A stretch of DNA of 64,000 nucleotides, from IMG/VR virus record IMGVR_UViG_3300032291_001597, positions 68,625 to 132,624 of that record; one strand, 5' to 3'. Positions 2,952 through 38,692 of this stretch are shown here, in pieces; within the stretch, counting starts at the first letter, position 1; each line of letters opens with the position of its first letter. The stretch comes from a virus. A program made the position numbers and the translations under genes. The notes under the pieces are model-generated. The model searched no databases. It saw only the letters and a list, made by a program, of their open reading frames with translations, and was not told where the DNA came from.

Positions 2952-2960
2952 AATAGAACT

Positions 2961-3104: not shown

Positions 3105-3105
3105 A

Positions 3106-3442: not shown

Positions 3443-3444
3443 TT

Positions 3445-3819: not shown

Positions 3820-3824
3820 AAATA

Positions 3825-3902
3825 AAAGGGGTGCCAGATTCTCTGTGCGATGTTTCCCACTCGCGAACACCTATTGCTTTTACCCCCGGCCTGAGTTATC
3901 TT
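3825..3902 (+). promoter_or_regulatory. Tripartite motif copy 2 (3825-3865) followed by a putative promoter TTGCTT-17-TATCTT (3874-3902)
   Basis: AAAGGGGT-N4-GATTCTCT-N15-CTCGCG; sigma70-like spacing upstream of the HTH gene. Confidence 0.55.
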
Positions 3903-3939
3903 TATTGACAGAAAGACTTACTAACAGAAAGAAGAAGAA

Positions 3940-10731: not shown

Positions 10732-11229
10732 ATGTATAATCACTCACACGGCACCTCTGGAAAGCAGGAACTGGCAATGAAGTTGTCAGTTATTTTGGCT
10801 GACGTTGTTGCTTATCGCGCACTGGCTCACGGATTCCACTGGAACGTCAAAGGACCTGAGTTTATTCAGTTCCACGAGTTCTTTGCGACTCTTTATGAAG
10901 ATGCTGACTCAAGCATTGACCCGCTAGCGGAGAACATTCGCAAGTTGGGCTACGACGCTCCAGTTACTCTTGAAGACTTCGTAAGTCTGTCTTGCGTTCA
11001 GGGCAAAACTTCTACTGGTAGCCCTATGGAGATGTCTACCATTCTTTACGAAGTCAATCAGCACATCCGTGGCTGCTTGCTAGACGGTTTCCGTTTGGCA
11101 GACGAGTGTGACCAGCAGGGTATCGCTGATTTCCTAGCAGGTCGTATTGACATGCACGACAAGTGGATTTGGCAGTTGGGCACCACCATTGGAGCAGACG
11201 CCACCACTATTCAAACTCTGATTCAGTAG
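10732..11229 (+). CDS. dps: Dps/ferritin-like DNA-protecting protein
   Basis: HGFHWNVKGPEFIQFHEFF...IDPLAENIRKLG with ferroxidase H/H/D/E residues. Confidence 0.92.
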   Translation: MYNHSHGTSGKQELAMKLSVILADVVAYRALAHGFHWNVKGPEFIQFHEFFATLYEDADSSIDPLAENIRKLGYDAPVTLEDFVSLSCVQGKTSTGSPMEMSTILYEVNQHIRGCLLDGFRLADECDQQGIADFLAGRIDMHDKWIWQLGTTIGADATTIQTLIQ

Positions 11230-17800: not shown

Positions 17801-18595
17801 CTTGTCGAAGAATATGGTTTTGAAATACTTGAAGAAAAAAGTGCTAGGGATGCTTTGAATTTTGGAACCGATTCTCTTCCTAAATCTTTGGTCTCTTTGA
17901 TTAGTAGGAGAGTATCTAAAAATGGAAACAAACTTCAGTTAAGTGTAAATTCAAGAGGCGGAACTGTAGTTATTAGAAACGACAGTTCTACTGGAAAAGC
18001 CTCTAGAAACCCTTTTCTGGAAGAAATTAGTGCTGACTCGGTTGTTTCTCTGTCGGTAAGTCCTAGTTCGACTGGTATGCCTAATGCTGGAGAGATGGGT
18101 GGGGCCGCTCTGCACGAACTAACGCACTTGATGGCAGAGACTGTAAAAATGGCTTCTTTCCTAGAGTGGGCAAAATTAAGCGAATTAGGTTTAGAGAAAA
18201 CGAAGCCAGATGGCTCACCTGATGTCCCCCTGATTAGGGCAGACTCGGTTGACAAGTCGGAGGCTGGCTCTTCTATTCCTGCCGAATTGATGGACAGAGC
18301 AAAAATTATGGCACTAGAAGCGGGCATACCGCTCAGCACTATTCTGAGATACGCTGGAAAGTTCAATACCGACTCCACAGGAATGAGGGTTGGCTTTGGG
18401 CCTAACAGCAACGGAGAACTTTTGACGACAGTTTTGGAGAGCCTATTGAGTGGTACTACTGGAAACTTGATTAGGAACCACGAAACAGAGAGGTTCGAGA
18501 GAGACTCGAATTCTCCAGTAGTAGACACTGGCCTAATGGACTGGGGCTTGGCTTCGCTACTATTATTAGACGCATACGCTAAGGGACAACTCTAG
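11825..18595 (+). CDS. Giant polyvalent protein 1 (2256 aa): QRRDRKGRF tag, ART-like, kinase-like, NUDIX, DEDDh exonuclease, HExxH peptidase-like
   Basis: YR..SSLD..DE (~13570-13810); YVK..NEVLA..WLANWDV..DNI..RVDPGG (~14370-15045); GG..RELQEEVGL (~15300-15750); DFE..QNVLFD..HSADGD (~15970-16580); HELTH 18113-18127. Confidence 0.85.
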   Translation: MAINPYAGENSFLARSARAKRQRRDRKGRFAWMGGAARFFLAVEGVGKGLSIPSRFAGYDKKSDSFDLELQDAEDIAKYGKLVRVPASKVEGLKAYLNLPSLGKRTPTNVESDVLVSPDEIKKIDAPSGWNLTKTENGVEFYESEDGWIAEKYSNLDAYKKSGKSPNKFKGSGVNGVPQSSQPVYHVYRNPKADALMYDDSVRFGDVSVAAQTWGDTQAVVEKLARRKSDSFKSNLSSLRALPSAWTDYDPSSRGLFSDTKWTLYKYESGKTPTPARIMKMSSIQRNNLYKKLSENLRNPEATANWYKDDRTLRTSFQVRQMPVNSADARTALNKARVEGKKIQTFDGTSKLDPKEDVLELSYYKTDGSEPIAYFQDWEDLEDWIEEERFSAKEKLKKEQEAAKNLEPMPRRAMELPDRSDSDIIQDLEPVSTPAISKSSFFKTENSDFEGVASEKADNPRSSKYIDGPDVVNEIMNEAAKVAFEQGRFPIPRKGGISTSADGKFLAPDVKIALQRQYKRVFDYLKESNPDFMANYDTFDKFWADVDKNSVSTSTPFGDGPESEFRQTVNKAYAKEILGLDEDGFIEVYRNSIRGGSREGQSEVDAAAGYSSLDKNMAWDYQSQATGDGPFSGRYSIKVKPEEYGGMIGHSGGLDEFGVVLGKNVTSIDGRIEKHGKLETLPILDGVTFGARGTGGGPYRFFNEGFRFIKPAGEFDYTSFDDLIARAGGKDKVRAKISEFWPNTTFDRVEKDSFGLNGSSFEKYITKLPNGKAIFNPASLTLTESGFGAEGIDQRGDRMDNVLKGALAFQELTGQKIIEWRRGGNPFTDKKASTAPETTATTERAGIRDLSGFKPTGGPLGSNEGGTYEDANGNKIYVKKPRTKLHGENEVLASMLYERLGVNTAKIRFGRLEDGTEVTYSEWIDSKKDLRQRLSDPEYVQKIQEGFGVDAWLANWDVAGGALDNIVTDNNGDPVRVDPGGALWFRARGEAKGDAFGEKVGELDTLTDGSNPQSKLVFGSMTNDEKRDAVSDLINISPDEIERLVNQNISDRGVAQKMSETLIARRKNALDRFGISDSVPLATPRQAPLFGPRREPRHRKRRISGYKYLVDRRGVHYPSKPLSAQDYSDLRAGRAMPKHLPFAFAPTKNGNVHYLDSNGKLHWGQYGAAGALLRRKNPEGDYEYLMIQRGRTSTGPGRWSSPGGAHDSFDDSQNPEITAKRELQEEVGLNLEDRIPSFVLRKEDAPDWAYNMIVYDVEFGEFDRIALERDKKGRLVGDAIDATWLDIDEIRYMKDRGMLHDGFSSDLIEQINEDNVGAGTIELISPIRYARSRVPQDLGVELVPATMDNNRVKAPSKPFTGSVERELDGLTKQEAIEKLRGMEISFIDFETNGIDDFDGDLNGNRPVQVGIVKVKDGKVIDRLNVYMNPGAPLGEWSSKNLQRDVVAPDGSRTPTLVTDAWLKKQISQDDALKQITDFMGENPIVGGQNVLFDLEILDRMAGNAGSDYKVSGTVDSMTLAEYLLPRYDSTKGVDGPKKKNADGTFTPSYSLGTITQFLGFEPTKWHSADGDAEDSASMLSKMLERAENDDSIGNDAFNSDLNTERYRDGLEKYKAATDPASPSTIKQNEGLEKILAKYPASPEKTEALRADVGIATRGGATEIMQEYVEAEEAKRRRYDNDPELDQIKREVFGLAVGLPTDTNDSSNPYLQGPIRDLGIELFPNLSPSERPELVQATPEWKELNKKVTAAGAVLGKKVRDAVTAEHKENYGTDPYQELESLDKKVLDAKDFYYKKLKNSKAIFARWRSGWLARNRNNVETVSAQLLAEMNRNETPNDTNALGRSPEIYDELLNIKASSANDQEALAKIFEVFVQSKVSDEKIFLSLRQGARSGGIRPGTPDHNDWLALSEVSMARNKLDGLKTKQSDLATRVSTLQAIETRRLLSALGVEFNHGVQIEAQFGRPGQVLATFNPATEKWEKTFSPLDEDRQEMLVEEYGFEILEEKSARDALNFGTDSLPKSLVSLISRRVSKNGNKLQLSVNSRGGTVVIRNDSSTGKASRNPFLEEISADSVVSLSVSPSSTGMPNAGEMGGAALHELTHLMAETVKMASFLEWAKLSELGLEKTKPDGSPDVPLIRADSVDKSEAGSSIPAELMDRAKIMALEAGIPLSTILRYAGKFNTDSTGMRVGFGPNSNGELLTTVLESLLSGTTGNLIRNHETERFERDSNSPVVDTGLMDWGLASLLLLDAYAKGQL

Positions 18596-18603
18596 GGAAA
18601 ATA

Positions 18604-18942
18604 ATGAATGAAATCGCTTATTACAGCATCACTTTGAAAGACGGTAGTGAACTCTACTGGACTAAATCATTTGGGCTAAACGTCTTCGTAAACTACTTGG
18701 AAAATAAGGAGTTAGACGAAACTAGCGACGCTTTTCAGTTGGCGCTTGATGTCGAGGTCTTTATGACATCTGGTGGGGACTCTTTTTCATTCAAGTATCT
18801 TGACGCTAGTATAAAGAAAGACATAAAAGACCCCGTAGCAGTGAAATTAGCAATTCTAAAGTTTTACCCTGACGCAGTGTTTTCTAGCACCGCGCCTAAC
18901 ACAGATGGTTTCACTAAAAAATCAGGAAACGTAGTCAACTAA
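18604..18942 (+). CDS. Small hypothetical protein directly after giant 1 (possible partner or immunity)
   Basis: SD-like AGGGA; 8 nt after the giant's stop codon. Confidence 0.75.
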   Translation: MNEIAYYSITLKDGSELYWTKSFGLNVFVNYLENKELDETSDAFQLALDVEVFMTSGGDSFSFKYLDASIKKDIKDPVAVKLAILKFYPDAVFSSTAPNTDGFTKKSGNVVN

Positions 18943-18982: not shown

Positions 18983-19034
18983 GTTTTTTATACAGATTGA
19001 CGCTGACTGTAGTCGTTTTAGGAGAAATTTTCAT

Positions 19035-22000
19035 ATGACTGACGCTTTCGGGCTGTCCCACCCTGACGACTCGCCAATTGTCGCAGCAAGCAATGCTTAC
19101 TCTGGTAAGAACTCGGCAGCAGCGAGACGTCTTAGAGTAAAACTTCAGCGCCGTGACCGTTATGGCCGCTGGGTCGAGATGGGTGGCGTACTCAGTTTCA
19201 AGGTGCGCGTCAATGGCGAAGTTCAGACCAAGATTGGTCGAGCAGTTGGTGGCTCCCAGCGTGACGGATATATTCGCGTCGTAATTCCAGAAGGTCAGGG
19301 CATTAGACCCGGCACTTACCACATCTCTGAAAAGGTATCCCGCACTGCTAAGGCGATGCTTGGCGAAGAATACCTAGAAGAAAAGGGCGTCAAGGTCGAT
19401 GCTAACGGAAACAGTATTGGCGAAGTACTTGACCGTGATATTGAAGATGTTAAGGACCTGTTTAGAGAAGACACTTCTGACCTAGACCGCGCGCTGCTTG
19501 ACGGAGTTCTGAGCGAGGACGAAAAGTCTGCCCTAGAAAAGTCACGCAAGACTGCCCCTACCCACAAGTCTTACAACGTTGTGGACGAATCTGGTAAGCG
19601 CGTCGACGAGGACGAGGTCGGTGGACTGGACTTCACTGACATCGCAGACTCTAGGAACTGGCGTCTACGTAAAAACAGGGATGGCTCAATCAAGTCTGGT
19701 AAGTACCTTTCTCCAGACAAGAAACTAAGAGCAGAAATCTACCAGACCGAGTCTGGCAAGACCTACATGAAGGTGTCTTACCCTTCAGATAAGAACCTAA
19801 TTGAGAACGAAGAGGTTGGTGCTCTTACCGAGGACGACCTACTTGGTGACTCTCGCAACCTAAGCACTGGCTACGGACGTTCGCTAGATAGCGTCGACAA
19901 GACCGTGAAGGGCGCTAAAGCCGTTCTACCTGCTCCAGATAAAGAAGAGCAGAAGAAGATTGACGCAGAGCGCAAGGCTATGGAGGACTTGGTAAAGGCT
20001 TCGCCAGTGCGCGAGTCTTACGCTATGCCAGAACTTTACATGGCTGAAGCAACTGACGACGAACTCTTTGCTCGACTAAAGTCCTTGGAAGAACGAGACA
20101 CCAACAATGACTCGCTATTTATTAAGGATGGAGAAATCCGCAACCTTAGGGCCGAGCGCGAGAGCGTAATTATTGACGACATCCGTCGTGAACTAAAGGG
20201 CCGTGGCTTGGCTATTCCTAAGTCAGTAAAGCCTGCTAAGCGTCCACTAAAGAAGCCAGCAAAACCTTCGGAGCAACCAGACAACTGGCTAAGCGCCCCT
20301 AGCCTCCGCGTTGGAGACCAGATTGTTGACGCTGACGGCAAGCGTAAGAAGATTGCTTCCATCACCCCTGAGCCAGAAGGCGACCGCGCACTAATCAAGT
20401 TCGCTGATGGTAGCGAAAGAATGTACGAGGGTGAAGAACTTGTACAGATTGCTAGCAAGAGCCTAATCAAGGAAGACGTTCCAGTAGAGCCAGTTGCACC
20501 TAAGTTCCCTGACGCTAACCGCTCTAACGTTTACGACAACGCTGCCAAGGCTCTTGGCATTACGCCAGAAGAACTCAAGGCTGACGAAAGAATCTTTGAC
20601 GCTGTAGAGCACACTTCGGACCTTATCGACAAGCGCCAAGAAGACGCTTTGCCAGAGTTTATGGGCGAAGACGGGACCACCAGACTCTACAGTTCTTTGA
20701 CTGATGCTATTGCTAAGCACTACGCACTGACTAAAAACGGCGAACTTTATGAGCCAGAGCCTTTGGGCAGAGATAACAAGGATTTGCTGGAGAAGGCTCG
20801 CGCTGGCGGGGCAACCATCAATCCGCTCAGCCGACGCAACAGGCTTCAGGGCTGGGCCGTCGCTGTTAGAGGCAACAACGACGAGATTATTGACACCGTG
20901 GCTCTTGAGGACGGTATCGGCGACCTACTTATGAATGACTATGTCAATAGAAACATTGACAAGTTTGGCGGAAACAAGTATCTTGGTCTTTGGCACGATA
21001 AAAAGAACCACGAATTGGTATTTGACGTCAGCGAAGTTTTCAAGGAGACTGATGTTGAGGCAGCAACCAAGGCTGGGCAAGATAGAAACCAAAAAGCCAT
21101 CTTCAACCTAAGAACTTGGGATGAGATTGAAACAGGAGGAACTGGAGACAATGGAAGAGCAAGAGAAGAGCGTGAATCAGCGCGTCTGGGCGGAGATAAG
21201 CCCAGAGGAGTGGAAGAACCTGAGCCAGCGAGAGCAGATTCTGCGGATGAAGAGCGCACGCCTGTCTCTGATTCAGGAGTCGACGGAGCAAGAGCCGAGG
21301 ACGAGCAAGGACTAAGCGATAATCTTCGCGAACTTCCTTCTTATCTTCGAGACAACCTATTAGAACTCTTACCTACTGGCATTTATGAGTCAGACAAGAA
21401 ATCTATTGGGGAGAACATTGACAGGCTAGAGAACTCTCTTGATAAGGGTAGTTCTGCAATTACTCAGGCTTTGAAGGCACTAAGCCGTTCTTTGGCTAAA
21501 GCAGAGAAAAAGCAAAACGAAAAAGACGCCGACAACCGAGAGGTCGCTGACCTACTCGACGAAACTATTATGCAGGTCTCTCTTGCACACAACTACGCTA
21601 AGTCAATTACCGTAGCACCTTCGGCACCTGGTCAACCAGAAGGTAAACTAACTCAACCGGGTAGCGCAAGTAGCAGAAGGATTAGCCCTTCTAGCGACGG
21701 TAGCGAATTCATAGCAGTTCCTAGGATGGCTAGGGATTCTGGTGGAGGCACTGACGACTCGATTTCTGATTTGTCAGATATCGTTGACGACACTGACCCA
21801 GAGATTGTTCGCCAACTTAGGGCGATGGATTTGGCTGTTGATTATGACAGTCTTAGTGATTCTCAAAAAAATACTTACAACAACCTAAAAACTTTCCAAG
21901 AGAAGGCGGTTAGGGCTTTAACTATTTCTGCCGTCTCAGACAATATGGAAAAGTACAAGCGCCAGCGCACGATTGCCCTGAGTGTTACTAGGGCACTTAA

Positions 22001-25000
22001 TGGATTTATTACTGCCATCAACACTGGTAATCCAAGAGAAGATTATATTTCTAGCGGTTCTCTGGAAAACAGAACTAGAAACCTGACTTTTATCGAAGAC
22101 TCGATAACTACTAAAACTGGTAGAGACACTAGAACTACGATTATTAATAAAGCAAAGGCAATTTTTGTTGCTCGCGATGGCGGGGTATATGAAATTAGCA
22201 TAGACAGTCACAACGCTGACATTGTGGCAAGACAACTTGATGCTAGCGGAAATTATGTGACTCTTCGCAGTGGTACGGAACGAGCAGCATTCTTAAATCA
22301 ATACGGCGGTAGTGGAGACGGGTTCCACTCCGAGGACGATGGATATTTAGACCCGTATAGCCCTAATTCCGATAAAATTAGGCCCGTTACTCCAGGAATG
22401 ATTAGAACAGACGACTCTGTTCAATCAAGTGGATTGGGAGGAGCGCTTTACGCTTTCCTAGGCTATCTACACGACCAAAATGGTCGTGGATTTATGCACA
22501 GTGCTCATTTGCTAGGACCTGGCAATATGGCAAGCAAACTTGTAAATAAAAACCTAAAGTATCACAACCCATCCCAGAGGGAAAAAGCCCTTACAGTAAT
22601 AAATCCTAATTCCGACATTATTCAGTCAATGAGTGACGCTGGCTGGTTTGGTCGCAGTTACAATGCTTTCACTACTTTGACTCTGTATCCTGGTAGCCAC
22701 AGTTCGCTGGACATTGCTGGAAAGATGACGTTCCAAAACTTCCTAAAGCCTTTGGACGGTAGCCTCGGCGGTGGGAACAACATCGGTCCACTTTGGAATA
22801 TGGACAAATCTATCCACGAACTTGCAGACCTGCTTCACGACTCGATTTCTATGGAGTCACCTGACGTGGCTGACTACTTTAAAGAGTATTTCGATGGCAA
22901 CAGGGAAGACTGGGAACTAATAAGCATCCAAGGCACTCTTCTTGACACTGCCTTCTTGGGCGGAGCGACCAAAGAAGATGCTCTTACTAAGTTACGTAAC
23001 CTAAAAAAGGTTACAGATTCACTCTTGTCCCCCGATGCTCGCATACCTGCTAGGGGGAACGTCAAGAAGATTGCTACTGGTCTATCTGAGGCTCTAAATC
23101 AACTAATTCCTGCTATCGATGCTAGAAGTTTTGATGACAGCACTAGGGTAGAGCGTCCTAAAGACATGGACTTCAAGTCGTTTAGCAAGGTCTTCGCTGA
23201 CCCGTTTGAATCTAAGAATGGCTATGAGCCGTTTAGAACCGACTTTATTATGCCAGAGGGCGTTCCTCCTATTGACTCTTCTGATTCATATATGCCAAAG
23301 AGAAATTACCCTAGTGAGTGGATAAACTCAGACGTTCCTGCCCCTAGTTCTTGGAGCGACGAAGGCGGAACCCTAGAACTACAGTCAGAGGAAAGATTGG
23401 TTGGTGCTTTAAGAAAGAGCATACAAAATAAATCTGACTTGGCAGTTATGGATTTTGATGGCGTAGACCGAAACATCCAAGCACGCTCTATTTATGATGC
23501 GCTACGTCGCAAGAGCCTAGACCACAATATGATTCTCGCCAAACTTTACGACGAGGTTTTGGGCGGGAACGAGAACCAAACAAGACTAGAAGAGTTTAGA
23601 AGAACCGCCCCGTCTCTTAAGAGCGAGGCTGCCGAACTAATCGAGTCCGTTGGAATCGTAGTTCCGCCAGCAGACTTTGAGTTTGGTGGTATGTACGACG
23701 AGGATGCCCATAAACTTTCCGCTGGCTCCGCAGTCTATGATGATGAAGTCACTGGAGAGGGTTTCGGTCTCCAACTAACCAAACTTTCGGAGAACGAGAA
23801 CCTACGTACACCTAACTACGCGACGTTGGACCGTAAGCCCTACGTTAGCGTAGATGAAGCGGACAACTGGTCCCGCTTGGGAACAAGTGACAATCCTAGA
23901 ATTATTGCTAGAAACTTCTCTCGCTCTGGGCTGTCTCAGGGGCTTGTTAGTGCTCTAAAGAGAAACAGTAGTTATGTGAACCTACAGTTTGCTAATGGCA
24001 CAGAGAGAAGAATCTCAATTCTTGCAATTAGAGATGCGCTTCAGCACCAAGGCGTAGACACTAACGCGCTTCTAAAGTCCGCTGGGGCGACTAGGGTTCG
24101 CGAGTACATCAGGTCTGTGAACGTGGCAGATAACGGTGAAAGAGTGACCAACACTTTCAAGGTCGGAGAAAAGCCAGGCTTTATAAGAACTAACACTTAC
24201 GCTAACCCAGAGGCAGAGTCTAACGGGCGAGCAACTGTTCTTATCGATGACCCTAATGCAACTTCTTATGATTCTTTGGGTTCTGGTTCTAAGGTTATCG
24301 GTCTCACTCGTTTAGACACTACGGCAGACCCGTTGCGACCTTACGCTGTAGTTTGGTTCGGTAAAAAAGATGCTGTCGCACTAAGCAGATTCAATGTTGA
24401 GGACCACGGCAGTAGAGTTGTAGAGCGCTATGAGACAAGAGCAGAGGCAGACGCCGTGCTTGGCGATTTGGCTAGAGACGATATGTTCTTTGTCGACCAG
24501 ATTATGCAGGACTCGGCAATCCTGCCTCCACTAAAAGTTACAAAGAGACTTCCTTCTACTTTGCCTATGACGGAGAGACTTCTGGGTTCTAGGACAATCA
24601 GCCACCAAATTGGAATTATTGACCCTAGAGTTGTCCACTTTTCCGACAACAGCGGGGTGCCTGGGGAAGGCGGTAAGGACGACCTGTTCCGTGATGACAA
24701 TGGCAACATACTTGCAACCGTAACTGCTAACGAAGACGGACAGTTCCAAGCCAAAGTAGACTCGCTCACCGAAACTTTTACTGACAGACAAATTGCTCAG
24801 CGGTGGGCTGGCGAAGAGTTGGCAAGAAAATTAGAAGCAAATCTAAACCTTGCTGATAGTAGTAAAGTCCCTGCGGAACGACCTAAGAGAGTTTTGTCTG
24901 GCTACGAAGAGTCAGAAACTCTAAAGACTGACCTAACTCTTTCTACTTATGGAGTTCTTTACTACAACGAAGGCTCTGTAGTAAGAGCCATTAAGGTTAC

Positions 25001-28000
25001 TGGTCAGCGGGCTAAGGCTTCTCCTTACAGAAGAGCCGAACCTGATTACCGACTTTTGTCTGTTAGCGTCACTGACCCGTCCAATCCTACTGTTAGTAAG
25101 TTTAACTTAGGGATTAGTAGAACTGGTAGAAGCGAATGGTACCTAACTGCTAGTGGTGGTGAAGTAGCGGTCGGCGAGCCTATGAATGTATCTAAAGTCT
25201 TTACCTCGCCAGAGGCAGCGATAAAGCAGGCAAGAAAACTTTCCGAGGACCGTCTAGGAAAAGACATGGTCCCTGACTTTGGTCCTATTGGATACAAGTC
25301 TTTGCCAGATGAAGTAATTCCTAGCCTCCCTAACGCCAAGGACTTGGATGAAGTGCTTACCCACGCTTCAACCGTTATTGACTCGACAGATGCGGTCGAA
25401 TTATCTAGTTTGAGTGGCGTGAATGGTGCCAAAAAAATTCAACTACCAGACGGAAGAATATTTAAGCGTAAAGGTGGTGGCATTACTTCTGGTCCTGCGG
25501 GCATTAGAAACGCAGAGAACAAGAGAAGAGTAGATGCTGAAGTATTTGCTCACGCTGTCTATAACTTTGCTGGAATCCAAGCAACTAACGCACAAAAGGG
25601 TAAAAACGGCTCCGCTCCTGTAGTCATGGACCCTTGGGTGGATGTTGACGGTAGCAAAAATTGGATGAAAATCACCGAACGTTCTGGGTCTGGCACCCAA
25701 ATTGGTGAAGACGTTCAGCGCGGTTTTGTGCTCGATGCTCTATTTGACAATCGTGATGTTGCTACTAACTCTGGAAACATTATTGTCGGAACCGATGGTC
25801 GCGCTCGCCGTTGCGACATGGGTGGTGCTGGTCTGTTTAAGGCTGGTGGAGACCGCGGTGTTAGGGCAACTACCTTCCAGGCTGATAGAGGAGAATCTTC
25901 TGTAGATTTTTATATGGGCAACTATATGGACTGGAGCCGTTCTACTGTCTACAAAGGTTTTAGTGAAGAGAAGCGTAAGCAATACGCTATCGACCACCTA
26001 GCCCCTCTTACTGACGAGGCGCTAGACAAACTTGGTGCTCTTATCGAAAACGAAGAAGACAGGAAGAAAACTCTTGACACTCTAAAGGCTCGCAGAGACG
26101 GTATTCTCCGCAAGTTGGGAATTGACATCGAGGAAGAACGAAGAAAGCGTGCTGGTTCATCTGCCGCCGAGCCTGAGTCTGAAGATGTTGTAGAAGTTCC
26201 AGACACTTCAGAAGAAACCATCGATGAGCCATTATTGTTGGAAGAACCCGTACGCGTACCCGTACCTTCTGGTCCTAAGAGGGTAAGTATGGCTGACCGT
26301 CTGCCTTTGAAGAGAACTCCTGATGGAGTTTATTACCCAGAACGTCACTCAGACCTATTCCCCTACACTCAGAAGATAAGAAACGGCGAGATTGTTCCTG
26401 AAGAACTTCCTTTCGCTTTCAAGCAACCTATACCTGTCATAGACGCTGGTGGATTCTATATGAGTACCCCACCGAGTTACGTTGACGCTAACGGAATCTA
26501 CAGAACTTCTGCTTTCGGAACTTTCAATACTTTTATTAGAAGAAAGAACGCTGACGGAAGTTACTCAATCCTTGGATTTGGCAGAGGCATAGGCGACAGA
26601 GAAGTTCTCGGTGGATTGATTGAAGATAGAGGTGCTTACAGCCACGACGCTGACGCTGAACACCTACGTCAAGTTTTGGATTCTAAAACTCACGGACTTG
26701 AGGGCAAAACTCCTGTGACGCACGAAGTGGAGTTGGCTCCTGGTTACAAGTCACGAGTTTCTATCTACGACTTGTCAGAAGATGAGGCTAGAGACTTGAA
26801 CTTAGCCAATGAACGACTCCTCCCTACCGACGATGGTGGAAAATACAGAAACAGGGAGTGGATGCCCCTGAACGATTTCTTAGAACGAATCTCTGACCCT
26901 GAGTGGATTGCCAACCCAGACAACCTTCAAGGACTTAGAGGCATCTTCTCTATGCCTACAATGCCACACCCACGGTCAAAGCCTCTAGGCGTGCCTCGTT
27001 CTGAAGATGAAGACATTGAAGTTGGAACTATCGAGTGGTCAAGAACCTCTGAGGTACTAGGTAAGTCTTATACAGTATCTAAACTAACCAACGGAACTTA
27101 CTCTATTAATGATTCGTCTGGTAAGACAATTGCTGAAGTGAGACCTGCTAAGGGGCTTTACAAGTTTGAAGCGTATATTCTTCCAAACAACATTGGCACT
27201 CCGGGCAACCCTGGAGCAAGACTAGCGTTCTTTGACAATGACAGACAAGCCACCGCTTGGGCTGGAGACTTAGCCACAGAAATGATTGGCGGAGACAAAA
27301 ACCTATTCAACGAATTAGGTGTTGGCGAAGTTGACTTAGGTCCTATTAGCCCAGTAGTTCACAAGGGCGGACACCTAGACAAGGCAACTGAAGACCAAAT
27401 CGCTACGCTAACTAGATTGGTCAACACTAAAGAAATGGTCGGTGCTACTCGCGCTCAGTACAGAGAGCACCTAAGAAAGCCAAACCTTGTAAAGGGTGAG
27501 GTTGGTTCTTTGATTAGGCAACTATCTAGAACTCCAGACCGTAGCGATGATGTTACTGCTTCGGAGCGAGATGGCGAATCAGTAACTCCTTCGAAGCCAA
27601 CCGATGGTGGCATTGTTCCACCTAAGGGTCCTTCGGGCGACGAAGATATGACCACTAGTCCTTTCATTAGAAAGAAGGCTTCCGAACTCGCACCTGGTGA
27701 CAAGATTGTCAATGCTAAGGGTGAATACATCGGCAAGGTAGCAATTACCTACGTCGACAAGGAAAACGGCAAAGTTACCGTTGCGATGATTGATAAGACT
27801 GGTGCTTCTGTAAACCTAGAAGAAGCCCTGATGGACGACTCTTACCTAGTCGACCCTAGAGTTCCAGCCGCTGTTGCCGTGCCTGAAGGTAAGGACAAGG
27901 AAGAGGGCGCTGGAGGCGCTGGTGGCGGAGACACCACTGCTCTACCTGGCGGACTAAGAGCGTTTAGGGCACGTAGCAGTTACATTATTGACCAAGTCAA

Positions 28001-31000
28001 GGCTGCCTACCCTGCTGCTGTTCAGTTGCCAAACGGTGACCTAGTTATTGCTGAGCGTCAATACACCGAGCGTTCAAGACTAAGAAGAACTTTCAAGTAT
28101 CAGGTGGTGGTTCACCGCCTACCAAACGAGCGTTTTGTTGCTTACGCTCGAGAAGTATTGCTTAAGCCAGATGGTTCGATTGACCCTGACTACACTCCTC
28201 GCGCAGGTAGAGTAACTCCTCAGACCCACTCTCCTTTGGCGTTGCTAAACGACATTCCACCACTGCTAAGTGGCGATGGTCCAGAGCAGGGTATTTTGAA
28301 GCGCAACCCTAGACAGTGGCTGTCTAATAGTGGTGACTTGCAGAACGAGGTAGTGAACCCTGCTACTGGTCAGTTGTTGCCTGAAACTCTTTCCCCTAGG
28401 GTTGGGGAAAAGTTTATTGGGGACACTGGTATCAAGACCACTGGCGACGGTGTGAAGGATGCTCTAATCGGATACATCGCTGAGTTGGTAGATAGAGGCG
28501 TTCTCGATAGAGACATTATTTCTCGTATGACTTCTGGTCGTCAGACTGCCCTAAACAAAGAGCAGGTAATTGACCTAGTAGAACGTATCGAGGCTAACCG
28601 AAACTTCCCTGGCGTGAACGCTATTCCTTATGTTGCTAGAGACAATGCTTCTATTGTTCGAATTGGTGACAAGGTCAGACACTACTCACCTAGTGGTCGA
28701 ATCAAGGAAGGTGTGGTCATGGACCGCATCCAGTTGGTTATCAACAGGAAGCCTTCTGGACAATACGAGTACACCGATAAGGTTTGGGTTCAATTCCCTG
28801 GACGCGCTGGTTGGACTGAGATTACTACTCGTAACCTTGAGATTTTGAAGCGTAAGGACGGTAGCGACCCGCTACCAGCAATTGATGCTGAAACCAAGAG
28901 ACCTATTTCTCCAATTCCCCCTGCTGCCCCTGAGACCGACAGAACTCCTATTCCTACGAGAGACGGCTCTGGAACTCCAGAGGCTTCCGATGAGTTCCTA
29001 AATGGACTAGATGAGTTCGGTGATGCTCACGTAGATGCTATGAATGGCGGACACTCTAAGTACGGTCTACCTGAAGGCTATAAGGCCAGCGTTCGAGCAG
29101 GCGGAGGAATGCAAGTCACTCAAGCCTCTGGTTACACGTCAGGACTATTTGCACCTAATCCTGATGGCACAGTTTCGGTGTATTTTACGTATCCAGGTTT
29201 TGTTGGAATTAATAAGAGCAAGACGGTAGCCACTAAGACAGAGGCCATGAGGCTTGTGGCTGAGGCGATGAAAATTGATGCTGGATTAATTCCAGCCCCA
29301 ACTAATGTCCACAAAAAAGGCGAGGCAGTGTCCGTGGACGATGTTTATGATTACACAGGTGCCGAAGACAGTTCAGGTGTAGTTCACGAAATTACTAGAA
29401 CTGGGCTTAGCACTACTTTTTCTAATCCTGCTACTGGCGAGAAACATCCTATTAGTGTGAGCAATAACTTAGATGGCACGTGGAAAGTTACGGGGATATC
29501 TGGCATCGGAGAAACTCTCTACTCCCCTTCTTCTAGACAAGAAGCCGAAGCAGTCGCTATTAGCGCCCTTAGCAGGGGAGATAGTGCTCCTTCTGCACCT
29601 GCCGTAGATGAATCTTCAACCCCTGCCCCAGACTTTGATGCCGCGCTTGCTTCGCTTTCTAGAGACCCTGTATTTAATGACAAGCACGTAGAACTTATGT
29701 ACAGGGAAGATGCGCCAGAAGAGTTTAAGATTCCTATCGGATACAAAGCCACCCTCTCTGCGGCGGGTGAAGGTCTGAAACTGGAACACATTGACAGACC
29801 TTCAGATAATCTAAATGCCACTGCCTTTAGGAAAGATGACGGCAGTTGGGAAATCAGAGTCAATAGACCTGCTGGTCGTATGGTAACTATTCCGCCTATC
29901 TATAGGAACAGAACAGCATCTGACCCTATCGATGCCATCAAGATGCTGAATAGTGACTTGAAGAACGCTGTAAAGGGCGCCCCTCACGACGGTATGAGTT
30001 TGGAAGACCGTATGGTCGACCTAACTAACAATGACCGTTTCCTTGAGGACATGCACACTTACTTGTTCACTGACACTTCTCTTCCTACGGAACTGAGAAA
30101 CAGATACAAGTTGCCTGAGGGCTACTCAGCGGTGAGAAGAACTTCTAGCGGTAGTTATGGAAGCGTGTTTATTACCAAGAAAGATGCTGACGGAAATACC
30201 GACCCTGACTCCCCTATTGCTGAAATTTCTGGCGTTATAGACGGAAAGCGGACTATCACTGTTTGGGCAAACGATTCAGACAGAATGGCTAGTAGACCAG
30301 TATTTGAAGGTAGAACTGCCCTAGACCCAGAGCACGCTATTGCTATGGTTTCTTCTGACTTGCGCTCAGCAATTCAAGGTAGACCCCCTCGTGACATCAA
30401 GCAGTATTGGGACCTAGGTTTGTCACCTGCTCCTGCCCCTGCTAGCCCAGAGGCACCAGCAGTTCCAAGCACTCCTGCCTCCCCAGCAGTCCCTAGCGCA
30501 CCTTCTCTTCCAGAAGGTTACACGGTTCGTGGCGGAGAGGGCGATGCCCCTACCATTGTTCGTTCTAACGATATGTCTAAGCCATATATGCGTATCGAGA
30601 AGTCGACCGACGAGAACGGTAACGAAATCTTCAAGGGCAAGGTTTGGAACACTGGTAAGGATGCTTTGGACGACTTATCACCTGCTGAAGAAAAGAACTT
30701 TACTGACCGCGAGAAGGCTATGAAGTGGGCTACTCGTAGGGCAGAGGACCCTTCAAGAATTGGTAAGCCTGACGAGCCAGAGACTAAGTGGGACACAGAC
30801 GCCGATGGCAGAGAGATTCTTACCGTTACTGGCATTGAAGGTAGCGAAGATGACAACAACCCTGCCGCTCTTATTACCGACGTCCCCGGTGTAGGAACTC
30901 TTGCTGCTGTCTACAACAAGAAGTCTGGTATTGGTGGCACTCCTTACGAAGTTCGCACTTTCCGTAGCAGAGATGAAGCCAAGGAATGGGCTAATGGTCT

Positions 31001-32219
31001 AATCAACGGCGAGTTGCAGAAGTTCAATAATGGCGAAGAATCCGACTTGTTTAAGAAGCCTGTGGCTAATCGTGACCCTAATATGCCAGACGTGTCACCA
31101 GAAATGATTGACAGATATCTAAGTGCCCCCGGTGTCTTTAAGCGTTTTGGTGGATTTGCCAGAGTCACCGAAGCAGACATTGAAGTCTTAGAAAGAAACG
31201 ACCCGACTGGAGAGTTCGGTAGATTTAGGGATTATGACGCTGATGCTCTAAGAGAGTTAATAAAACAAGAAGCAGCCTCTATTCCTTTCGATACCACTAA
31301 ATTTGACGCTTCTACTATTCGTAAATTTAGAGAAGCATACGAAACCAGAAAGCGTAAGCAGATTGCCAACTATGTGACGCGAGTAAACGGTAGGGCACAA
31401 GCATTTATAAGCATTATTAACGGTAACAGAGACCCCGAAAAGAGGGCTAAAGAACTAGACGCTTTTAGATACGCTGAAAACAGAATTGTGGACAGAATGT
31501 CTAGAGCAAAACTGGGCTACAACATTAGTTTTGACGCTCTTAAGCAAGTTCTAACTGCCCCAGACCCAGCAGAAAGAAGATTTAAAAACCAGTTCGAAAC
31601 CAGAACTACTAGAGGGCACGACGCACACTATTCTGACCCACTAGGAATGAGCAGAAGAGGACCAGAACTTGAGTTTGGTAACGTTCCCATAGATACTGAC
31701 TCCAAAAATAGACCTAAGTACGGTTTCCCATTAAATAATGGAGTGAATGGCATTGGAGAGGTCACCGACTTTGATGGCCCAGAGGACGTTCTAGGTTTTA
31801 GAAAAGTCTCCTCCGAGTTTGCTAGAGACTTAGATAAAAACCTAAACCGCGCTATGGACAATAGCACCGCGTCTCACTACGGTGAAATTACTGTCGTGTT
31901 TAAGGACGAAGTAAAGTCTAGGACCACCCTAACTGCTTATGATTCTCTAGGCGCTAGCATATTGTCCGCTCCTATGGACAATATAACTAAAGAGAGCCTG
32001 TGGGCTGCTGGTATTAGAGATAACTTCCTTATGGTAGATAGCAACGGTAAAGTTAGTAGTGGTTACAGCAGTTACGCTGAAATTCAAATGCACGGTCTTT
32101 TGGGGCTAGATGATGTTGAGGTTATTTATGCCCCAAACGCCACTTCTCAGGAAAGATTAGAAAGCCTTTTACGTACCCTTGGTATAGGAATAGAAGTCAA
32201 AATTAAGGGTAGGAGATAG
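19035..32219 (+). CDS. Giant polyvalent protein 2 (4394 aa): QRRDRYGRW tag, SH3/KOW-like barrels, GNAT-like, kinase-like, degenerate NUDIX, small alpha/beta repeats, C-terminal DUF3626-like domain
   Basis: QSSGLGGALY..HS (~22400-22520); DALFDNRDV..GNI..RCDMGG (~25400-26120); FKNQFET..RPKYG..HYGE..RTTLTAYDS..YAEIQMHG (~31500-32219). Confidence 0.85.
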   Translation: MTDAFGLSHPDDSPIVAASNAYSGKNSAAARRLRVKLQRRDRYGRWVEMGGVLSFKVRVNGEVQTKIGRAVGGSQRDGYIRVVIPEGQGIRPGTYHISEKVSRTAKAMLGEEYLEEKGVKVDANGNSIGEVLDRDIEDVKDLFREDTSDLDRALLDGVLSEDEKSALEKSRKTAPTHKSYNVVDESGKRVDEDEVGGLDFTDIADSRNWRLRKNRDGSIKSGKYLSPDKKLRAEIYQTESGKTYMKVSYPSDKNLIENEEVGALTEDDLLGDSRNLSTGYGRSLDSVDKTVKGAKAVLPAPDKEEQKKIDAERKAMEDLVKASPVRESYAMPELYMAEATDDELFARLKSLEERDTNNDSLFIKDGEIRNLRAERESVIIDDIRRELKGRGLAIPKSVKPAKRPLKKPAKPSEQPDNWLSAPSLRVGDQIVDADGKRKKIASITPEPEGDRALIKFADGSERMYEGEELVQIASKSLIKEDVPVEPVAPKFPDANRSNVYDNAAKALGITPEELKADERIFDAVEHTSDLIDKRQEDALPEFMGEDGTTRLYSSLTDAIAKHYALTKNGELYEPEPLGRDNKDLLEKARAGGATINPLSRRNRLQGWAVAVRGNNDEIIDTVALEDGIGDLLMNDYVNRNIDKFGGNKYLGLWHDKKNHELVFDVSEVFKETDVEAATKAGQDRNQKAIFNLRTWDEIETGGTGDNGRAREERESARLGGDKPRGVEEPEPARADSADEERTPVSDSGVDGARAEDEQGLSDNLRELPSYLRDNLLELLPTGIYESDKKSIGENIDRLENSLDKGSSAITQALKALSRSLAKAEKKQNEKDADNREVADLLDETIMQVSLAHNYAKSITVAPSAPGQPEGKLTQPGSASSRRISPSSDGSEFIAVPRMARDSGGGTDDSISDLSDIVDDTDPEIVRQLRAMDLAVDYDSLSDSQKNTYNNLKTFQEKAVRALTISAVSDNMEKYKRQRTIALSVTRALNGFITAINTGNPREDYISSGSLENRTRNLTFIEDSITTKTGRDTRTTIINKAKAIFVARDGGVYEISIDSHNADIVARQLDASGNYVTLRSGTERAAFLNQYGGSGDGFHSEDDGYLDPYSPNSDKIRPVTPGMIRTDDSVQSSGLGGALYAFLGYLHDQNGRGFMHSAHLLGPGNMASKLVNKNLKYHNPSQREKALTVINPNSDIIQSMSDAGWFGRSYNAFTTLTLYPGSHSSLDIAGKMTFQNFLKPLDGSLGGGNNIGPLWNMDKSIHELADLLHDSISMESPDVADYFKEYFDGNREDWELISIQGTLLDTAFLGGATKEDALTKLRNLKKVTDSLLSPDARIPARGNVKKIATGLSEALNQLIPAIDARSFDDSTRVERPKDMDFKSFSKVFADPFESKNGYEPFRTDFIMPEGVPPIDSSDSYMPKRNYPSEWINSDVPAPSSWSDEGGTLELQSEERLVGALRKSIQNKSDLAVMDFDGVDRNIQARSIYDALRRKSLDHNMILAKLYDEVLGGNENQTRLEEFRRTAPSLKSEAAELIESVGIVVPPADFEFGGMYDEDAHKLSAGSAVYDDEVTGEGFGLQLTKLSENENLRTPNYATLDRKPYVSVDEADNWSRLGTSDNPRIIARNFSRSGLSQGLVSALKRNSSYVNLQFANGTERRISILAIRDALQHQGVDTNALLKSAGATRVREYIRSVNVADNGERVTNTFKVGEKPGFIRTNTYANPEAESNGRATVLIDDPNATSYDSLGSGSKVIGLTRLDTTADPLRPYAVVWFGKKDAVALSRFNVEDHGSRVVERYETRAEADAVLGDLARDDMFFVDQIMQDSAILPPLKVTKRLPSTLPMTERLLGSRTISHQIGIIDPRVVHFSDNSGVPGEGGKDDLFRDDNGNILATVTANEDGQFQAKVDSLTETFTDRQIAQRWAGEELARKLEANLNLADSSKVPAERPKRVLSGYEESETLKTDLTLSTYGVLYYNEGSVVRAIKVTGQRAKASPYRRAEPDYRLLSVSVTDPSNPTVSKFNLGISRTGRSEWYLTASGGEVAVGEPMNVSKVFTSPEAAIKQARKLSEDRLGKDMVPDFGPIGYKSLPDEVIPSLPNAKDLDEVLTHASTVIDSTDAVELSSLSGVNGAKKIQLPDGRIFKRKGGGITSGPAGIRNAENKRRVDAEVFAHAVYNFAGIQATNAQKGKNGSAPVVMDPWVDVDGSKNWMKITERSGSGTQIGEDVQRGFVLDALFDNRDVATNSGNIIVGTDGRARRCDMGGAGLFKAGGDRGVRATTFQADRGESSVDFYMGNYMDWSRSTVYKGFSEEKRKQYAIDHLAPLTDEALDKLGALIENEEDRKKTLDTLKARRDGILRKLGIDIEEERRKRAGSSAAEPESEDVVEVPDTSEETIDEPLLLEEPVRVPVPSGPKRVSMADRLPLKRTPDGVYYPERHSDLFPYTQKIRNGEIVPEELPFAFKQPIPVIDAGGFYMSTPPSYVDANGIYRTSAFGTFNTFIRRKNADGSYSILGFGRGIGDREVLGGLIEDRGAYSHDADAEHLRQVLDSKTHGLEGKTPVTHEVELAPGYKSRVSIYDLSEDEARDLNLANERLLPTDDGGKYRNREWMPLNDFLERISDPEWIANPDNLQGLRGIFSMPTMPHPRSKPLGVPRSEDEDIEVGTIEWSRTSEVLGKSYTVSKLTNGTYSINDSSGKTIAEVRPAKGLYKFEAYILPNNIGTPGNPGARLAFFDNDRQATAWAGDLATEMIGGDKNLFNELGVGEVDLGPISPVVHKGGHLDKATEDQIATLTRLVNTKEMVGATRAQYREHLRKPNLVKGEVGSLIRQLSRTPDRSDDVTASERDGESVTPSKPTDGGIVPPKGPSGDEDMTTSPFIRKKASELAPGDKIVNAKGEYIGKVAITYVDKENGKVTVAMIDKTGASVNLEEALMDDSYLVDPRVPAAVAVPEGKDKEEGAGGAGGGDTTALPGGLRAFRARSSYIIDQVKAAYPAAVQLPNGDLVIAERQYTERSRLRRTFKYQVVVHRLPNERFVAYAREVLLKPDGSIDPDYTPRAGRVTPQTHSPLALLNDIPPLLSGDGPEQGILKRNPRQWLSNSGDLQNEVVNPATGQLLPETLSPRVGEKFIGDTGIKTTGDGVKDALIGYIAELVDRGVLDRDIISRMTSGRQTALNKEQVIDLVERIEANRNFPGVNAIPYVARDNASIVRIGDKVRHYSPSGRIKEGVVMDRIQLVINRKPSGQYEYTDKVWVQFPGRAGWTEITTRNLEILKRKDGSDPLPAIDAETKRPISPIPPAAPETDRTPIPTRDGSGTPEASDEFLNGLDEFGDAHVDAMNGGHSKYGLPEGYKASVRAGGGMQVTQASGYTSGLFAPNPDGTVSVYFTYPGFVGINKSKTVATKTEAMRLVAEAMKIDAGLIPAPTNVHKKGEAVSVDDVYDYTGAEDSSGVVHEITRTGLSTTFSNPATGEKHPISVSNNLDGTWKVTGISGIGETLYSPSSRQEAEAVAISALSRGDSAPSAPAVDESSTPAPDFDAALASLSRDPVFNDKHVELMYREDAPEEFKIPIGYKATLSAAGEGLKLEHIDRPSDNLNATAFRKDDGSWEIRVNRPAGRMVTIPPIYRNRTASDPIDAIKMLNSDLKNAVKGAPHDGMSLEDRMVDLTNNDRFLEDMHTYLFTDTSLPTELRNRYKLPEGYSAVRRTSSGSYGSVFITKKDADGNTDPDSPIAEISGVIDGKRTITVWANDSDRMASRPVFEGRTALDPEHAIAMVSSDLRSAIQGRPPRDIKQYWDLGLSPAPAPASPEAPAVPSTPASPAVPSAPSLPEGYTVRGGEGDAPTIVRSNDMSKPYMRIEKSTDENGNEIFKGKVWNTGKDALDDLSPAEEKNFTDREKAMKWATRRAEDPSRIGKPDEPETKWDTDADGREILTVTGIEGSEDDNNPAALITDVPGVGTLAAVYNKKSGIGGTPYEVRTFRSRDEAKEWANGLINGELQKFNNGEESDLFKKPVANRDPNMPDVSPEMIDRYLSAPGVFKRFGGFARVTEADIEVLERNDPTGEFGRFRDYDADALRELIKQEAASIPFDTTKFDASTIRKFREAYETRKRKQIANYVTRVNGRAQAFISIINGNRDPEKRAKELDAFRYAENRIVDRMSRAKLGYNISFDALKQVLTAPDPAERRFKNQFETRTTRGHDAHYSDPLGMSRRGPELEFGNVPIDTDSKNRPKYGFPLNNGVNGIGEVTDFDGPEDVLGFRKVSSEFARDLDKNLNRAMDNSTASHYGEITVVFKDEVKSRTTLTAYDSLGASILSAPMDNITKESLWAAGIRDNFLMVDSNGKVSSGYSSYAEIQMHGLLGLDDVEVIYAPNATSQERLESLLRTLGIGIEVKIKGRR

Positions 32220-32224
32220 AGGAC

Positions 32225-32503
32225 ATGGATAACTTGGAGATTTATACTCTAAAAGACGATACTGACCTATCGATTGTTTATGATTTTTCGATTGGCGAAA
32301 TTTATTACGTCCACTTGGAAGATAAGAAAGACCCCGAGACTAAGTATCAGATAGTGCCGCTTGAATTTATTTTTCAAAAAATGCCTGGCGACTGGGAAAT
32401 AATTAATGAAGGTAAACTAGAAATCAAACAAATAAGCCAAGAACAAGCAGAAGAGCAGGGCCTAGACGTGAGATTTTTTATAAAAGATGAGGTGCAAGGC
32501 TAA
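32225..32503 (+). CDS. Small acidic hypothetical protein after giant 2 (possible partner or immunity)
   Basis: 5 nt after the giant's stop; AGGA SD-like. Confidence 0.75.
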   Translation: MDNLEIYTLKDDTDLSIVYDFSIGEIYYVHLEDKKDPETKYQIVPLEFIFQKMPGDWEIINEGKLEIKQISQEQAEEQGLDVRFFIKDEVQG

Positions 32504-33195
32504 TGCCAGAAAACAAAAACTTCACTTTAGATTCTGCAACACTGGGGACCCTATTCAAGACAGTTGGCGTTATCACCGCTCAGGGCAAGGAAAACTATAA
32601 CAGCACCATTCTAGGCGCTTATTACGACAGAGCCGAGGAAACTAGAGGTCTATACGTAGTTATGCCAAACGGTGAAATCAAGTATTTTGATGTCGAGGAC
32701 GTAAACATCAAGTCCGAGGGAACCGACGAACTAATTGGTTTTTCTTTAGATGAGACTGAGTACATTCTAAGAACTTTGATGGAAGATGATGGCGAGTGGA
32801 TTTCTTCCTACAAAATGCCAATTCCAGAACTCATTATAGAAAAAAAGATTATTGGCGAGTCTTTGCCAGCAATCAATAAACTTACTGGCTTTGAGTTACC
32901 TGAGTTGCCTCCGTTCTTTGAGGCGTTCTTTGTCTATAAGTCAGAGACTTCGGACTACTTGATGTCTATTAATTACCTAACAAACTATCGCAACTACGTA
33001 CGTTCAAACGCCCGATGGGTGTTTGAGGACATGTCTCAGGACTATTACGAAGACCTAGAGGTCTTTGAAGTGGATAAAGAACGGGCTAAGGCTTTTCTGT
33101 ATTTATATGACCGTCAAAAGGGTTATTTAAAGTTCTCAGAAGTCAAGACTTACTTATCGACCCCGTCTACATCTACTATAATCAATAATGACTAA
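32503..33195 (+). CDS. Acidic hypothetical protein
   Basis: TAATG coupling with the previous gene. Confidence 0.8.
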   Translation: MPENKNFTLDSATLGTLFKTVGVITAQGKENYNSTILGAYYDRAEETRGLYVVMPNGEIKYFDVEDVNIKSEGTDELIGFSLDETEYILRTLMEDDGEWISSYKMPIPELIIEKKIIGESLPAINKLTGFELPELPPFFEAFFVYKSETSDYLMSINYLTNYRNYVRSNARWVFEDMSQDYYEDLEVFEVDKERAKAFLYLYDRQKGYLKFSEVKTYLSTPSTSTIINND

Positions 33196-38573: not shown

Positions 38574-38692
38574 TAAAATAAAGACTAGGTGGAGTGCCTC
38601 CACGCCCAGTTGCGTGCGTAGTCCCTTTTCACCTTGTACCGAAAGCGAATGAGTGAAATCCGCTCATTTACAACTGTCCTTAGGAGGCACAG
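38574..38692 (+). promoter_or_regulatory. -10 box (TAAAAT 38574-38579) and structured 5' leader of the capsid gene
   Basis: Helices GACTA/TAGTC, GTGGAG/CTCCAC, AATGAGTG/CGCTCATT and an SD-occluding CTGTCCT/AGGcACAG. Confidence 0.55.

Follow-up and report, generated by a model that had tools for sequence, protein, structure and literature searches.

Giant 2 is a gene of 4394 codons in a stretch of viral DNA of 64,000 nucleotides (nt), taken from IMG/VR record IMGVR_UViG_3300032291_001597 (positions 68,625 to 132,624) and referred to below as the window. The product is a single, strongly acidic chain of about 480 kDa with a net charge of about -116. It is probably a virion-loaded polyvalent effector protein. 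A single selected frame stands in the portal-to-capsid block and combines an ordered backbone with optional effector modules. The design logic is familiar from polyvalent proteins; the backbone, the N-terminal motif and the core are undescribed.

The open reading frame (ORF) is uninterrupted. Five near-full-length, collinear homologues, each from another assembly, are found in a search of 5.8 billion proteins. Their lengths are 4386, 4179, 4479, 3724 and 3200 amino acids (aa), with identities of 97, 89, 85, 72 and 80%, respectively; those of 3724 and 3200 aa are N-terminally cut. In the comparison with the positional orthologue in related locus L004 (85% identical), the ratio of nonsynonymous to synonymous substitution rates (dN/dS) was calculated for fifteen blocks of 300 codons and is 0.04-0.43 in all of them. 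Promoter-like and terminator-like sites are no commoner within the ORF than in shuffled sequence. Giant 2 is a real, single reading frame under selection. The preliminary description of this DNA, prepared from its letters and reading frames, had allowed that the frame might prove an assembly chimera or not be expressed as one; both doubts fall, because independent collinear homologues exist and dN/dS stays below 1 throughout. A chimera or an untranslated open frame is scarcely credible: the record is metagenome-assembled and the length of the ORF extreme, but at least five assemblies, independent of one another, contain collinear homologues, every dN/dS block lies well under 1, the ribosome-binding site is canonical, direct terminal repeats are present in the genome, and its completeness is put at 100%. 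For the whole protein nothing significant is found in Pfam, PHROGs, NCBIfam or PDB sequences, the Pfam search giving a sub-threshold PRC barrel only. No match to giant 2 is obtained by megablast of the phage collection.

The gene lies among head genes, as first described, with the portal upstream and the protease polyprotein and major capsid genes downstream. The slot between portal and protease/capsid holds an ORF of 3289 aa in the lake metagenome phage DSL-LC01, one of 1654 aa (gp68) in the Microbacterium phage Cece, and gp73 together with the ADP-ribosyltransferase (ART) gp75 in Gordonia phage Sixama. Giants are present in 29 of 29 related loci from IMG/VR and JGI metagenomes; where contigs are long enough, a second giant and a protease gene of about 1750 aa adjoin. 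The N-terminal Arg-rich motif (N-motif) and the modules of giant 2 are not found by sequence in Sixama; structural similarity is seen in BFVD.

The N-motif was searched for with an iterated hidden Markov model (HMM), E-values being scaled to 1e5 sequences. It reads ...GNS.AARR.RV..QRRDRYGRW.EMGG.... All giant relatives have it at their N-terminus or close by (E 1e-16 to 1e-25); it is also present in Cece gp68 and, in DSL-LC01, in the giant as well as in the small DUF3626 protein. The N-terminal matches of giant 2 are Cece gp68 and Pumpernickel gp82. Each protease polyprotein has a weaker variant at aa ~335-410 (E 1e-10 to 1e-15), and in every protease gene of about 1750 aa in related loci this copy stands just after a TAAG-type site. 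Within the genome the motif is limited to giant 1, giant 2 and the protease polyprotein; aa 18-61 of giant 2 and aa 2-45 of giant 1 are 52% identical. Of 83 unique cases of the motif, 69 have a tetrapeptide of the form [LIVT][VTAI]A[AGS..] no more than 45 residues upstream; among random windows the share is 11.7%. Because of this distribution and of the upstream xAA site, the N-motif is put forward as a candidate procapsid-incorporation signal with an adjacent maturation cleavage site. Giant 2 is plausibly a head component that needs processing or unfolding. The proposed cleavage motif [LIV]xA[ASGC] is not enriched within it (16 observed, 16.9 expected), and there is therefore no sequence evidence for dicing into many pieces; cutting at many such sites was considered and rejected as unsupported. 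Among these sites the N-terminal one alone is conserved in distant relatives.

Three individual cases of the motif are recorded. In the protease polyprotein the copy (34260-34430, aa 348-404) reads YTP.ERS.NA.KQVRD..G.FA.QG and follows directly on a TAAG-type site. Giant 1 opens directly with the motif and has no leader (11825-12010, aa 1-62). The post-portal gene of DSL-LC01 (L002, 19269-20666) encodes 466 aa that consist of N-motif and DUF3626, the two ends of giant 2 as a stand-alone protein.

A non-packaged, cytoplasmic protein of host takeover or anti-defence, merely encoded in the late block, is quite unlikely. Kinases and ARTs can act from inside the cell too, no recognised virion domain is detected in giant 2 by Pfam or PHROGs, and the neighbouring ferritin-like gene means that the block is not purely structural. 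Late synthesis would nevertheless be ill-timed for takeover; even distant phages keep the position between portal and protease/capsid; the N-motif is common to giant 2 and the prohead protease polyprotein and confined to these proteins; and relatives of giant 2 domains are fused to MuF head proteins.

The giants form a family with an ordered backbone and swappable modules, counting at least 35 clusters of phage proteins of 1,000-4,900 aa. An exhaustive HMMER search with aa 2100-3299 yields 70 representative proteins, about 35 of which are giants of 1000-4300 aa with a common core. The backbone, defined by mapping giant 2 against distant giants, consists of the N-terminal domain (aa 1-200), M3a (918-1300), a module reaching to aa ~1700 and the core (2972-3300). 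Two inserts, S2 (520-740) and the kinase (2100-2400), are optional, and the last ~1000 residues vary. Zeta_toxin or PI3_PI4_kinase occurs in distant giants, C-terminal where located; NUDIX and AAA_33 are also found in relatives. Invariant polar residues are many in the core (LPNGD, VVH, HS, IGxTGIxxTG..KD). No usable match to the core is obtained in the ESM Atlas, and family profiles of M3 and core give none of significance against PDB sequences. Shorter proteins sharing aa 520-1719 were searched for and not found. AlphaFold2 models were made in blocks of 1200 residues (aa 520-1719 and aa 2100-3299); S2 is modelled poorly in the first of these (predicted local distance difference test, pLDDT, 30-50).

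An atypical protein-kinase-like domain occupies aa ~2105-2375. It was modelled in the second block from an alignment of 25 rows; mean pLDDT of the block is 69.6, that of the kinase part 80-94. Foldseek returns protein kinases from E 9e-5 and 55 PDB matches at E <= 1e-3. With VIA-align, Helicobacter pylori CtkA (PDB 3AKJ/3AKK; Z 15.9-17.4) comes first, at Z 17.4 over 239 residues with a root-mean-square deviation (rmsd) of 4.5. Clearly lower are PI4KII-alpha (4HND, 13.5), HipT (13.1), CotH (13.0), actin-fragmin kinase (12.6) and HipA (12.6). CtkA, PI4KII-alpha and the giant 2 domain share the order Gly-rich loop, Lys, Glu, D..N.D, D-x-G; they differ in that identity is just 13-15%, with no match at the sequence level, and the family profile gives no significant match against PDB sequences. 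The family alignment shows a Gly-rich loop, Lys, Glu, a D-x4-N-x-D loop and R-x-D-x-G-G; giant 2 keeps FKRK, DAEV, D2234-ALF-D-N2239-R-D2241 and R-x-D2261-M-G-G. The kinase-like domain announced in the preliminary description is thus confirmed, by model, as a bilobal kinase fold; phosphotransfer is predicted only. Giant 1 has a paralogous domain at aa 853-1190 (E 4e-13). Fusion partners of the kinase in 26 smaller homologues are ADPrib_exo_Tox (9 of 26), Phage_Mu_F (4 of 26), NUDIX, DUF3626 and HD; one protein (P0052) unites MuF, kinase and DUF3626. Such partners (ADPrib_exo_Tox, Phage_Mu_F, NUDIX, DUF3626) are those described for polyvalent and MuF effectors that virions deliver (PMC5512222). 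In BFVD the kinase matches phage proteins annotated as ADP-ribosyltransferase, portal fusions and PI3K/PI4K-domain proteins, the top match being Sixama gp73, encoded directly after the Sixama portal.

Downstream of the kinase, aa 2431-2518 align with the linker and first strands of the giant 1 NUDIX domain (E 2e-9). The NUDIX box GX5EX7REUXEEXGU, intact in giant 1, is degenerate in giant 2; read by eye it is ...LRQVLDSKTHGL, with the glutamates replaced, and no Pfam match is obtained. With reservations, aa ~2431-2620 may be regarded as a degenerate NUDIX remnant.

The C-terminus looks like a DUF3626 module by transitive Pfam matches, and ART activity is predicted. A stretch at aa ~3989-4198 matches the 466-aa post-portal protein of DSL-LC01, itself a Pfam DUF3626 member (E 7e-10). 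Of four relatives aligned to aa 4156-4394, three match DUF3626 (PF12294; best E 7e-11): the L004 positional orthologue (51% identical), L006 and the DSL-LC01 protein. In the ESM Atlas, the C-terminus of giant 2 retrieves DUF3626 clusters at 0.92-0.93. Residues Y4229, Y4282, Y4347, E4349 and Q4351 are invariant. Salmonella SopF, whose domain is DUF3626 (PMC6682159), acts as an ADP-ribosyltransferase and has an I-Y-E triad (PMC10333799). SopF (PDB 7DN8/7DN9) and the C-terminus of giant 2 have DUF3626 in common through those transitive matches; direct alignment is not significant, SopF reaching E 1.9 at best in searches of PDB sequences that gave no significant match, and the I-Y-E triad could not be mapped. 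The target in giant 2 must differ, because SopF is a type III effector that acts on the eukaryotic V-ATPase and depends on ARF GTPases. Synonymous divergence (dS) between giant 2 and L004 is 1.6-1.8 after aa ~3920 (30800-32216), compared with 0.1-0.7 elsewhere. Because of this jump, a recombination breakpoint just before the module, and with it an exchanged effector cassette, is suggested. A stop-to-stop open frame in related locus L006 (1197-15884) spans 4896 aa and has DUF3626-like segments at two places (aa ~2429-2563 and ~4679-4834); the second giant, which comes after it, measures 3540 aa.

A mainly structural protein (inner body, scaffold or DNA conduit), in which enzyme-like domains are vestigial or accessory, is rather unlikely. 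It would agree with the most conserved parts being the non-enzymatic backbone and the KOW barrels, with kinase and S2 being optional in relatives, with a degenerate NUDIX-like region, with repeats, linkers and a net charge of about -116, and with an N-motif common to giant 2 and the protease polyprotein. Kinase catalytic residues and DUF3626 invariant residues are, however, kept under purifying selection, and relatives bear differing toxin-type effector domains, partly C-terminal, which argues for effector function. The structural role and that of a virion-loaded effector overlap and are not mutually exclusive.

Polyvalent proteins occur in phages and conjugative elements (PMC5512222; Iyer, Burroughs, Anand, de Souza, Aravind 2017). 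They are very large, unite several effector domains (GNATs, ARTs, kinases and Zeta-toxin kinases among them), have their genes beside those for packaging and are presumed to accompany the DNA into the host. Giant 2 is phage-encoded beside packaging and head genes, in a complete genome with direct terminal repeats, and has its place between the portal and the protease/major capsid genes. It possesses at least two effector domains (kinase fold, DUF3626 by transitive matches, NUDIX-like remnant). Its architecture varies among orthologues (optional kinase and S2; Zeta_toxin, PI3_PI4_kinase, NUDIX). Like polyvalent proteins, it strings effector-type domains and uncharacterised linker domains in one polypeptide. 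Unlike them, it has no detectable Pfam LPD, MuF, ArdC, SNF2, methylase or peptidase domain; its kinase has a full C-lobe region, whereas the polyvalent-protein kinase clade of Iyer et al. is C-lobe-less; and its backbone and N-motif lie outside Pfam, PHROGs and NCBIfam. Backbone, N-motif and core, all absent from these collections, are as far as sequence tells undescribed.

For a virion-loaded polyvalent effector, the following course is proposed. Giant 2 would be synthesised with the head proteins as one very long polypeptide and enter the procapsid, brought there by the Arg-rich N-motif after the xAA site and trimmed inside. The chain of about 480 kDa would exit via the tail, unfolded or in pieces, and reach the actinobacterial host together with the DNA, so that enzyme modules could act before phage gene expression. 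Kinase and ART-like domain would modify host proteins or small molecules, for takeover or for blunted defences. KOW barrels and repeat modules would be binding or spacer parts.

Several points weigh against this course. The main weakness is that packaging and delivery are predicted here from sequence. No MuF, portal or other recognised virion-anchoring domain is detected in giant 2 (Pfam, PHROGs). The role given to the N-motif is drawn from distribution alone. The C-terminus of giant 2 itself has no Pfam DUF3626 match at E 1. In the kinase, one family-conserved Asp (second 'DN') is Gly; in the NUDIX-like part the catalytic glutamates are missing. N-terminal domain, S2, M3, core and repeats, about two thirds of the protein, are without assigned function. 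A cargo of 480 kDa stands at the upper limit of documented tail passage.

A further possibility, less likely than not, is that N-motif and xAA site make up an undescribed, portable tag for capsid loading and processing, and that M3 and core represent new enzymes or a protein-translocation device by which a chain of ~480 kDa could enter the cell behind the DNA. With such a tag this actinophage lineage would load any cargo, be it one of the giants, the protease polyprotein or a small effector that stands alone (as in DSL-LC01).

Giant proteins of more than 4,400 aa, virion-associated, fast-diverging and encoded by genes of ~13 kb, are described for Microbacterium cluster EK phages and Burro (PMC7302621; Jacobs-Sera et al. 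2020). Burro virions contain a protein of ~250 kDa, which exceeds the other predicted products and is attributed by the authors to gp27 or a processed part of it (PMC7302621). The EK/Burro giants nearly equal giant 2 in size. They belong to genomes of ~54 kb, a quarter of which is the giant gene; here two giants and a giant protease gene share 132 kb. Among 50,697 phage records searched by tblastn with aa 1-2400 and 2401-4394, only Cece, Pumpernickel and DSL-LC01 are recovered, and no EK/Burro giants.

T4 Alt ART, P1 DarB and the N4 virion RNA polymerase (vRNAP) are examples of enzymes that travel in the head and leave it together with the DNA. MuF-type polymorphic toxins resemble giant 2 in their modular C-terminal effector, and relatives of both kinase and DUF3626 module are fused to Phage_Mu_F. 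Unlike these toxins and virion-injected enzymes, giant 2 lacks a MuF, RNA-polymerase, helicase or methylase signature, and its proposed loading signal is Arg-rich. No PHROG or Pfam match to N4-like vRNAP families is found in giant 2 at E 0.01 to 0.1.

If packaged, giant 2 would rank with the largest protein cargos suggested for tailed phages, and phages of abundant freshwater Actinobacteria would equip their virions in advance with a kinase and an ART-like enzyme. The giant family offers a natural system for loading and ejection of huge proteins, with conserved backbone and swappable effectors. The N-motif is a testable candidate for a capsid-targeting tag in actinophages, cultured Microbacterium phages included. 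Two poorly understood families, CtkA-like kinases and DUF3626/SopF, are assigned phage and bacterial contexts.

The protein had been described beforehand as a mosaic of barrels, GNAT-like, kinase-like and repeat domains. Two barrels, the kinase fold, a duplication and one repeat pair stand; the GNAT is unsupported. Of three SH3/KOW-like segments then named, those at nt ~27690 and ~28660 are upheld by superposition: aa 2878-2942 fit domain I of EF-P/eIF5A (Z 9.2, rmsd 2.1 A, 63 residues), and aa 3204-3276 fit the Spt5 KOW domain (Z 8.2, rmsd 2.1 A, 61 residues). The former has a sub-threshold Pfam match to the PRC-barrel (20.2 vs 21.2 bits), likewise just under threshold in six family members. 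The three barrel candidates (aa 412-482, 2878-2942 and 3204-3276) have no detectable profile similarity to one another. The internal duplication (RLVGALRKSIQ.. and GLVSALKR..) is substantiated, family profiles of aa ~1450-1515 and ~1632-1697 aligning with an hhalign probability of 98.3% (E 1.9e-14). Both copies are conserved family-wide and modelled as helix, beta-hairpin and helices (pLDDT 75-90); copy B is the most widely shared backbone piece, present also in relatives of ~1900 aa.

About ten look-alike modules consist of beta-strands followed by a helix and end in F.s..eA..WA. As for the claimed repeat domains, the tandem pair in aa 3560-3792 is statistically solid (3560-3657 against 3687-3792: BLAST E 5e-7, hhalign E 1.8e-5); the other modules are a visual pattern. 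All-against-all hhalign of the modules supports only R7-R8, and weakly R5-R7 and R2-R6. HMM iteration from the tandem pair does not recruit the other beta-plus-helix modules. One partial, weak match to DUF2188 (PF09954) is given by the sister module aa 2052-2072 (E 0.027, 15.1 bits, cut-off 22). Repeat copy number varies among close relatives. Pro/Ala linkers, also named earlier, are present, for example at aa 3797-3824.

The string QSSGLGGALY, once taken as GNAT-like motif A, is present inside M3a (aa 1130-1139, nt 22422-22451); the assignment to GNAT is unsupported, and the string by itself is no evidence for it. No match to the GNAT Pfam model is found for aa 918-1300 at E 5, nor for the whole protein or its relatives; no GNAT is returned by the M3 family profile against PDB sequences. 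The aa 520-1719 model has no Foldseek PDB match at E <= 0.001 and no GNAT among the Foldseek and VIA matches listed, the VIA lists being filled by the generic four-helix bundle (aa 747-866), which masks other folds in S2 and M3, GNAT and SAM-lyase among them. Q/K-x-x-G-[LIV]-[GA] is partly conserved in the family, as are the motifs HS..L..GN.YSK and Q.DK; because of this conservation, these M3a motifs may well be the active site of an enzyme.

Table 1. Features of giant 2 and neighbouring genes, by position in the window.
Feature	Position	Strand	Remarks
Large terminase	4993-6390		
Portal	8960-10723		
Ferritin/Dps-like gene	10732-11229		Pfam Ferritin, E 8.5e-17
Giant 1	11825-18595		2256 aa; Pfam NUDIX and DEDD exonuclease matches
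112-aa ORF	18604-18942		Between giant 1 and giant 2
Shine-Dalgarno-like AGGAG	19020..19024	+	10 nt 5' of giant 2 ATG
Giant 2, whole ORF (P0001)	19035..32219	+	Stop codon included; 4394 aa, uninterrupted
Conserved N-terminal domain	19035..19634	+	aa 1-200; 40-50% identity in distant giants
IVAAS (aa 15-19) and ~60-aa Arg-rich motif (aa 16-75)	19077..19259	+	GxNS..ARR.RV..QRRDRYGRW.EMGG
First proposed SH3-like segment, LRVGDQIV (candidate)	20268..20480	+	aa 412-482
Optional module S2	20592..21254	+	aa 520-740; 37-51% identity to some giants
Four-helix bundle, generic fold	21273..21632	+	aa 747-866
Backbone module M3a	21786..22934	+	aa 918-1300; helices, five-stranded sheet, helical part
Duplicated ~65-aa helix-hairpin-helix domain, copy A	23382..23579	+	aa ~1450-1515
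Duplicated domain, copy B	23928..24125	+	aa ~1632-1697; invariant RDALQ..GVD
Atypical protein-kinase-like domain, CtkA/PI4KII-like	25347..26159	+	aa ~2105-2375
NUDIX-like region	26325..26894	+	aa ~2431-2620; low model confidence
Beta-rich module with C-terminal helix	27030..27296	+	aa 2666-2754; pLDDT 80-90; one of ~ten look-alikes
KOW/SH3-like barrel, EF-P domain I-like	27666..27860	+	aa 2878-2942
Family hallmark core	27948..28934	+	aa 2972-3300; 38-49% identity in distant giants
KOW barrel, Spt5-KOW-like	28644..28862	+	aa 3204-3276; at end of core
Tandem repeat pair, each opening [LI]P.GY	29712..30410	+	aa 3560-3657 and 3687-3792
Pro/Ala/Ser linker	30423..30506	+	aa 3797-3824
Putative DUF3626 module (SopF family, ADP-ribosyltransferase-like)	31572..32216	+	aa ~4180-4394
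92-aa ORF	32225-32503		3' of giant 2; acidic
230-aa ORF	32503-33195		Acidic; translationally coupled with 92-aa ORF
Protease polyprotein	33219-38549		1776 aa; matches head-maturation protease and MuF-type PHROGs
Major capsid	38653-40746		Major tail protein gene next

The virus record is 132,624 bp long, and the window takes up its right-hand 64 kb. Two WhiB-family proteins are encoded outside the window (G000:C1:4101-4301 and 31722-31928), and therefore the host is indicated to be actinobacterial. By major capsid protein, the nearest named relative is phage DSL-LC01 (68%); identity to Microbacterium and Arthrobacter phages of ~190 kb is 48-53%, and Gordonia and Mycobacterium phages are more distant. 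No Pfam or PHROG match is found for the ORFs of 112, 92 and 230 aa that flank giant 2; they may be chaperones or immunity-like partners. The position of the ferritin/Dps-like gene, between portal and giant 1, is unusual within a head-gene block. The protease polyprotein contains a perfect (Gly-Thr)11 tract (34692-34757, aa 492-513), which may be a flexible linker or a slippage-prone tract.

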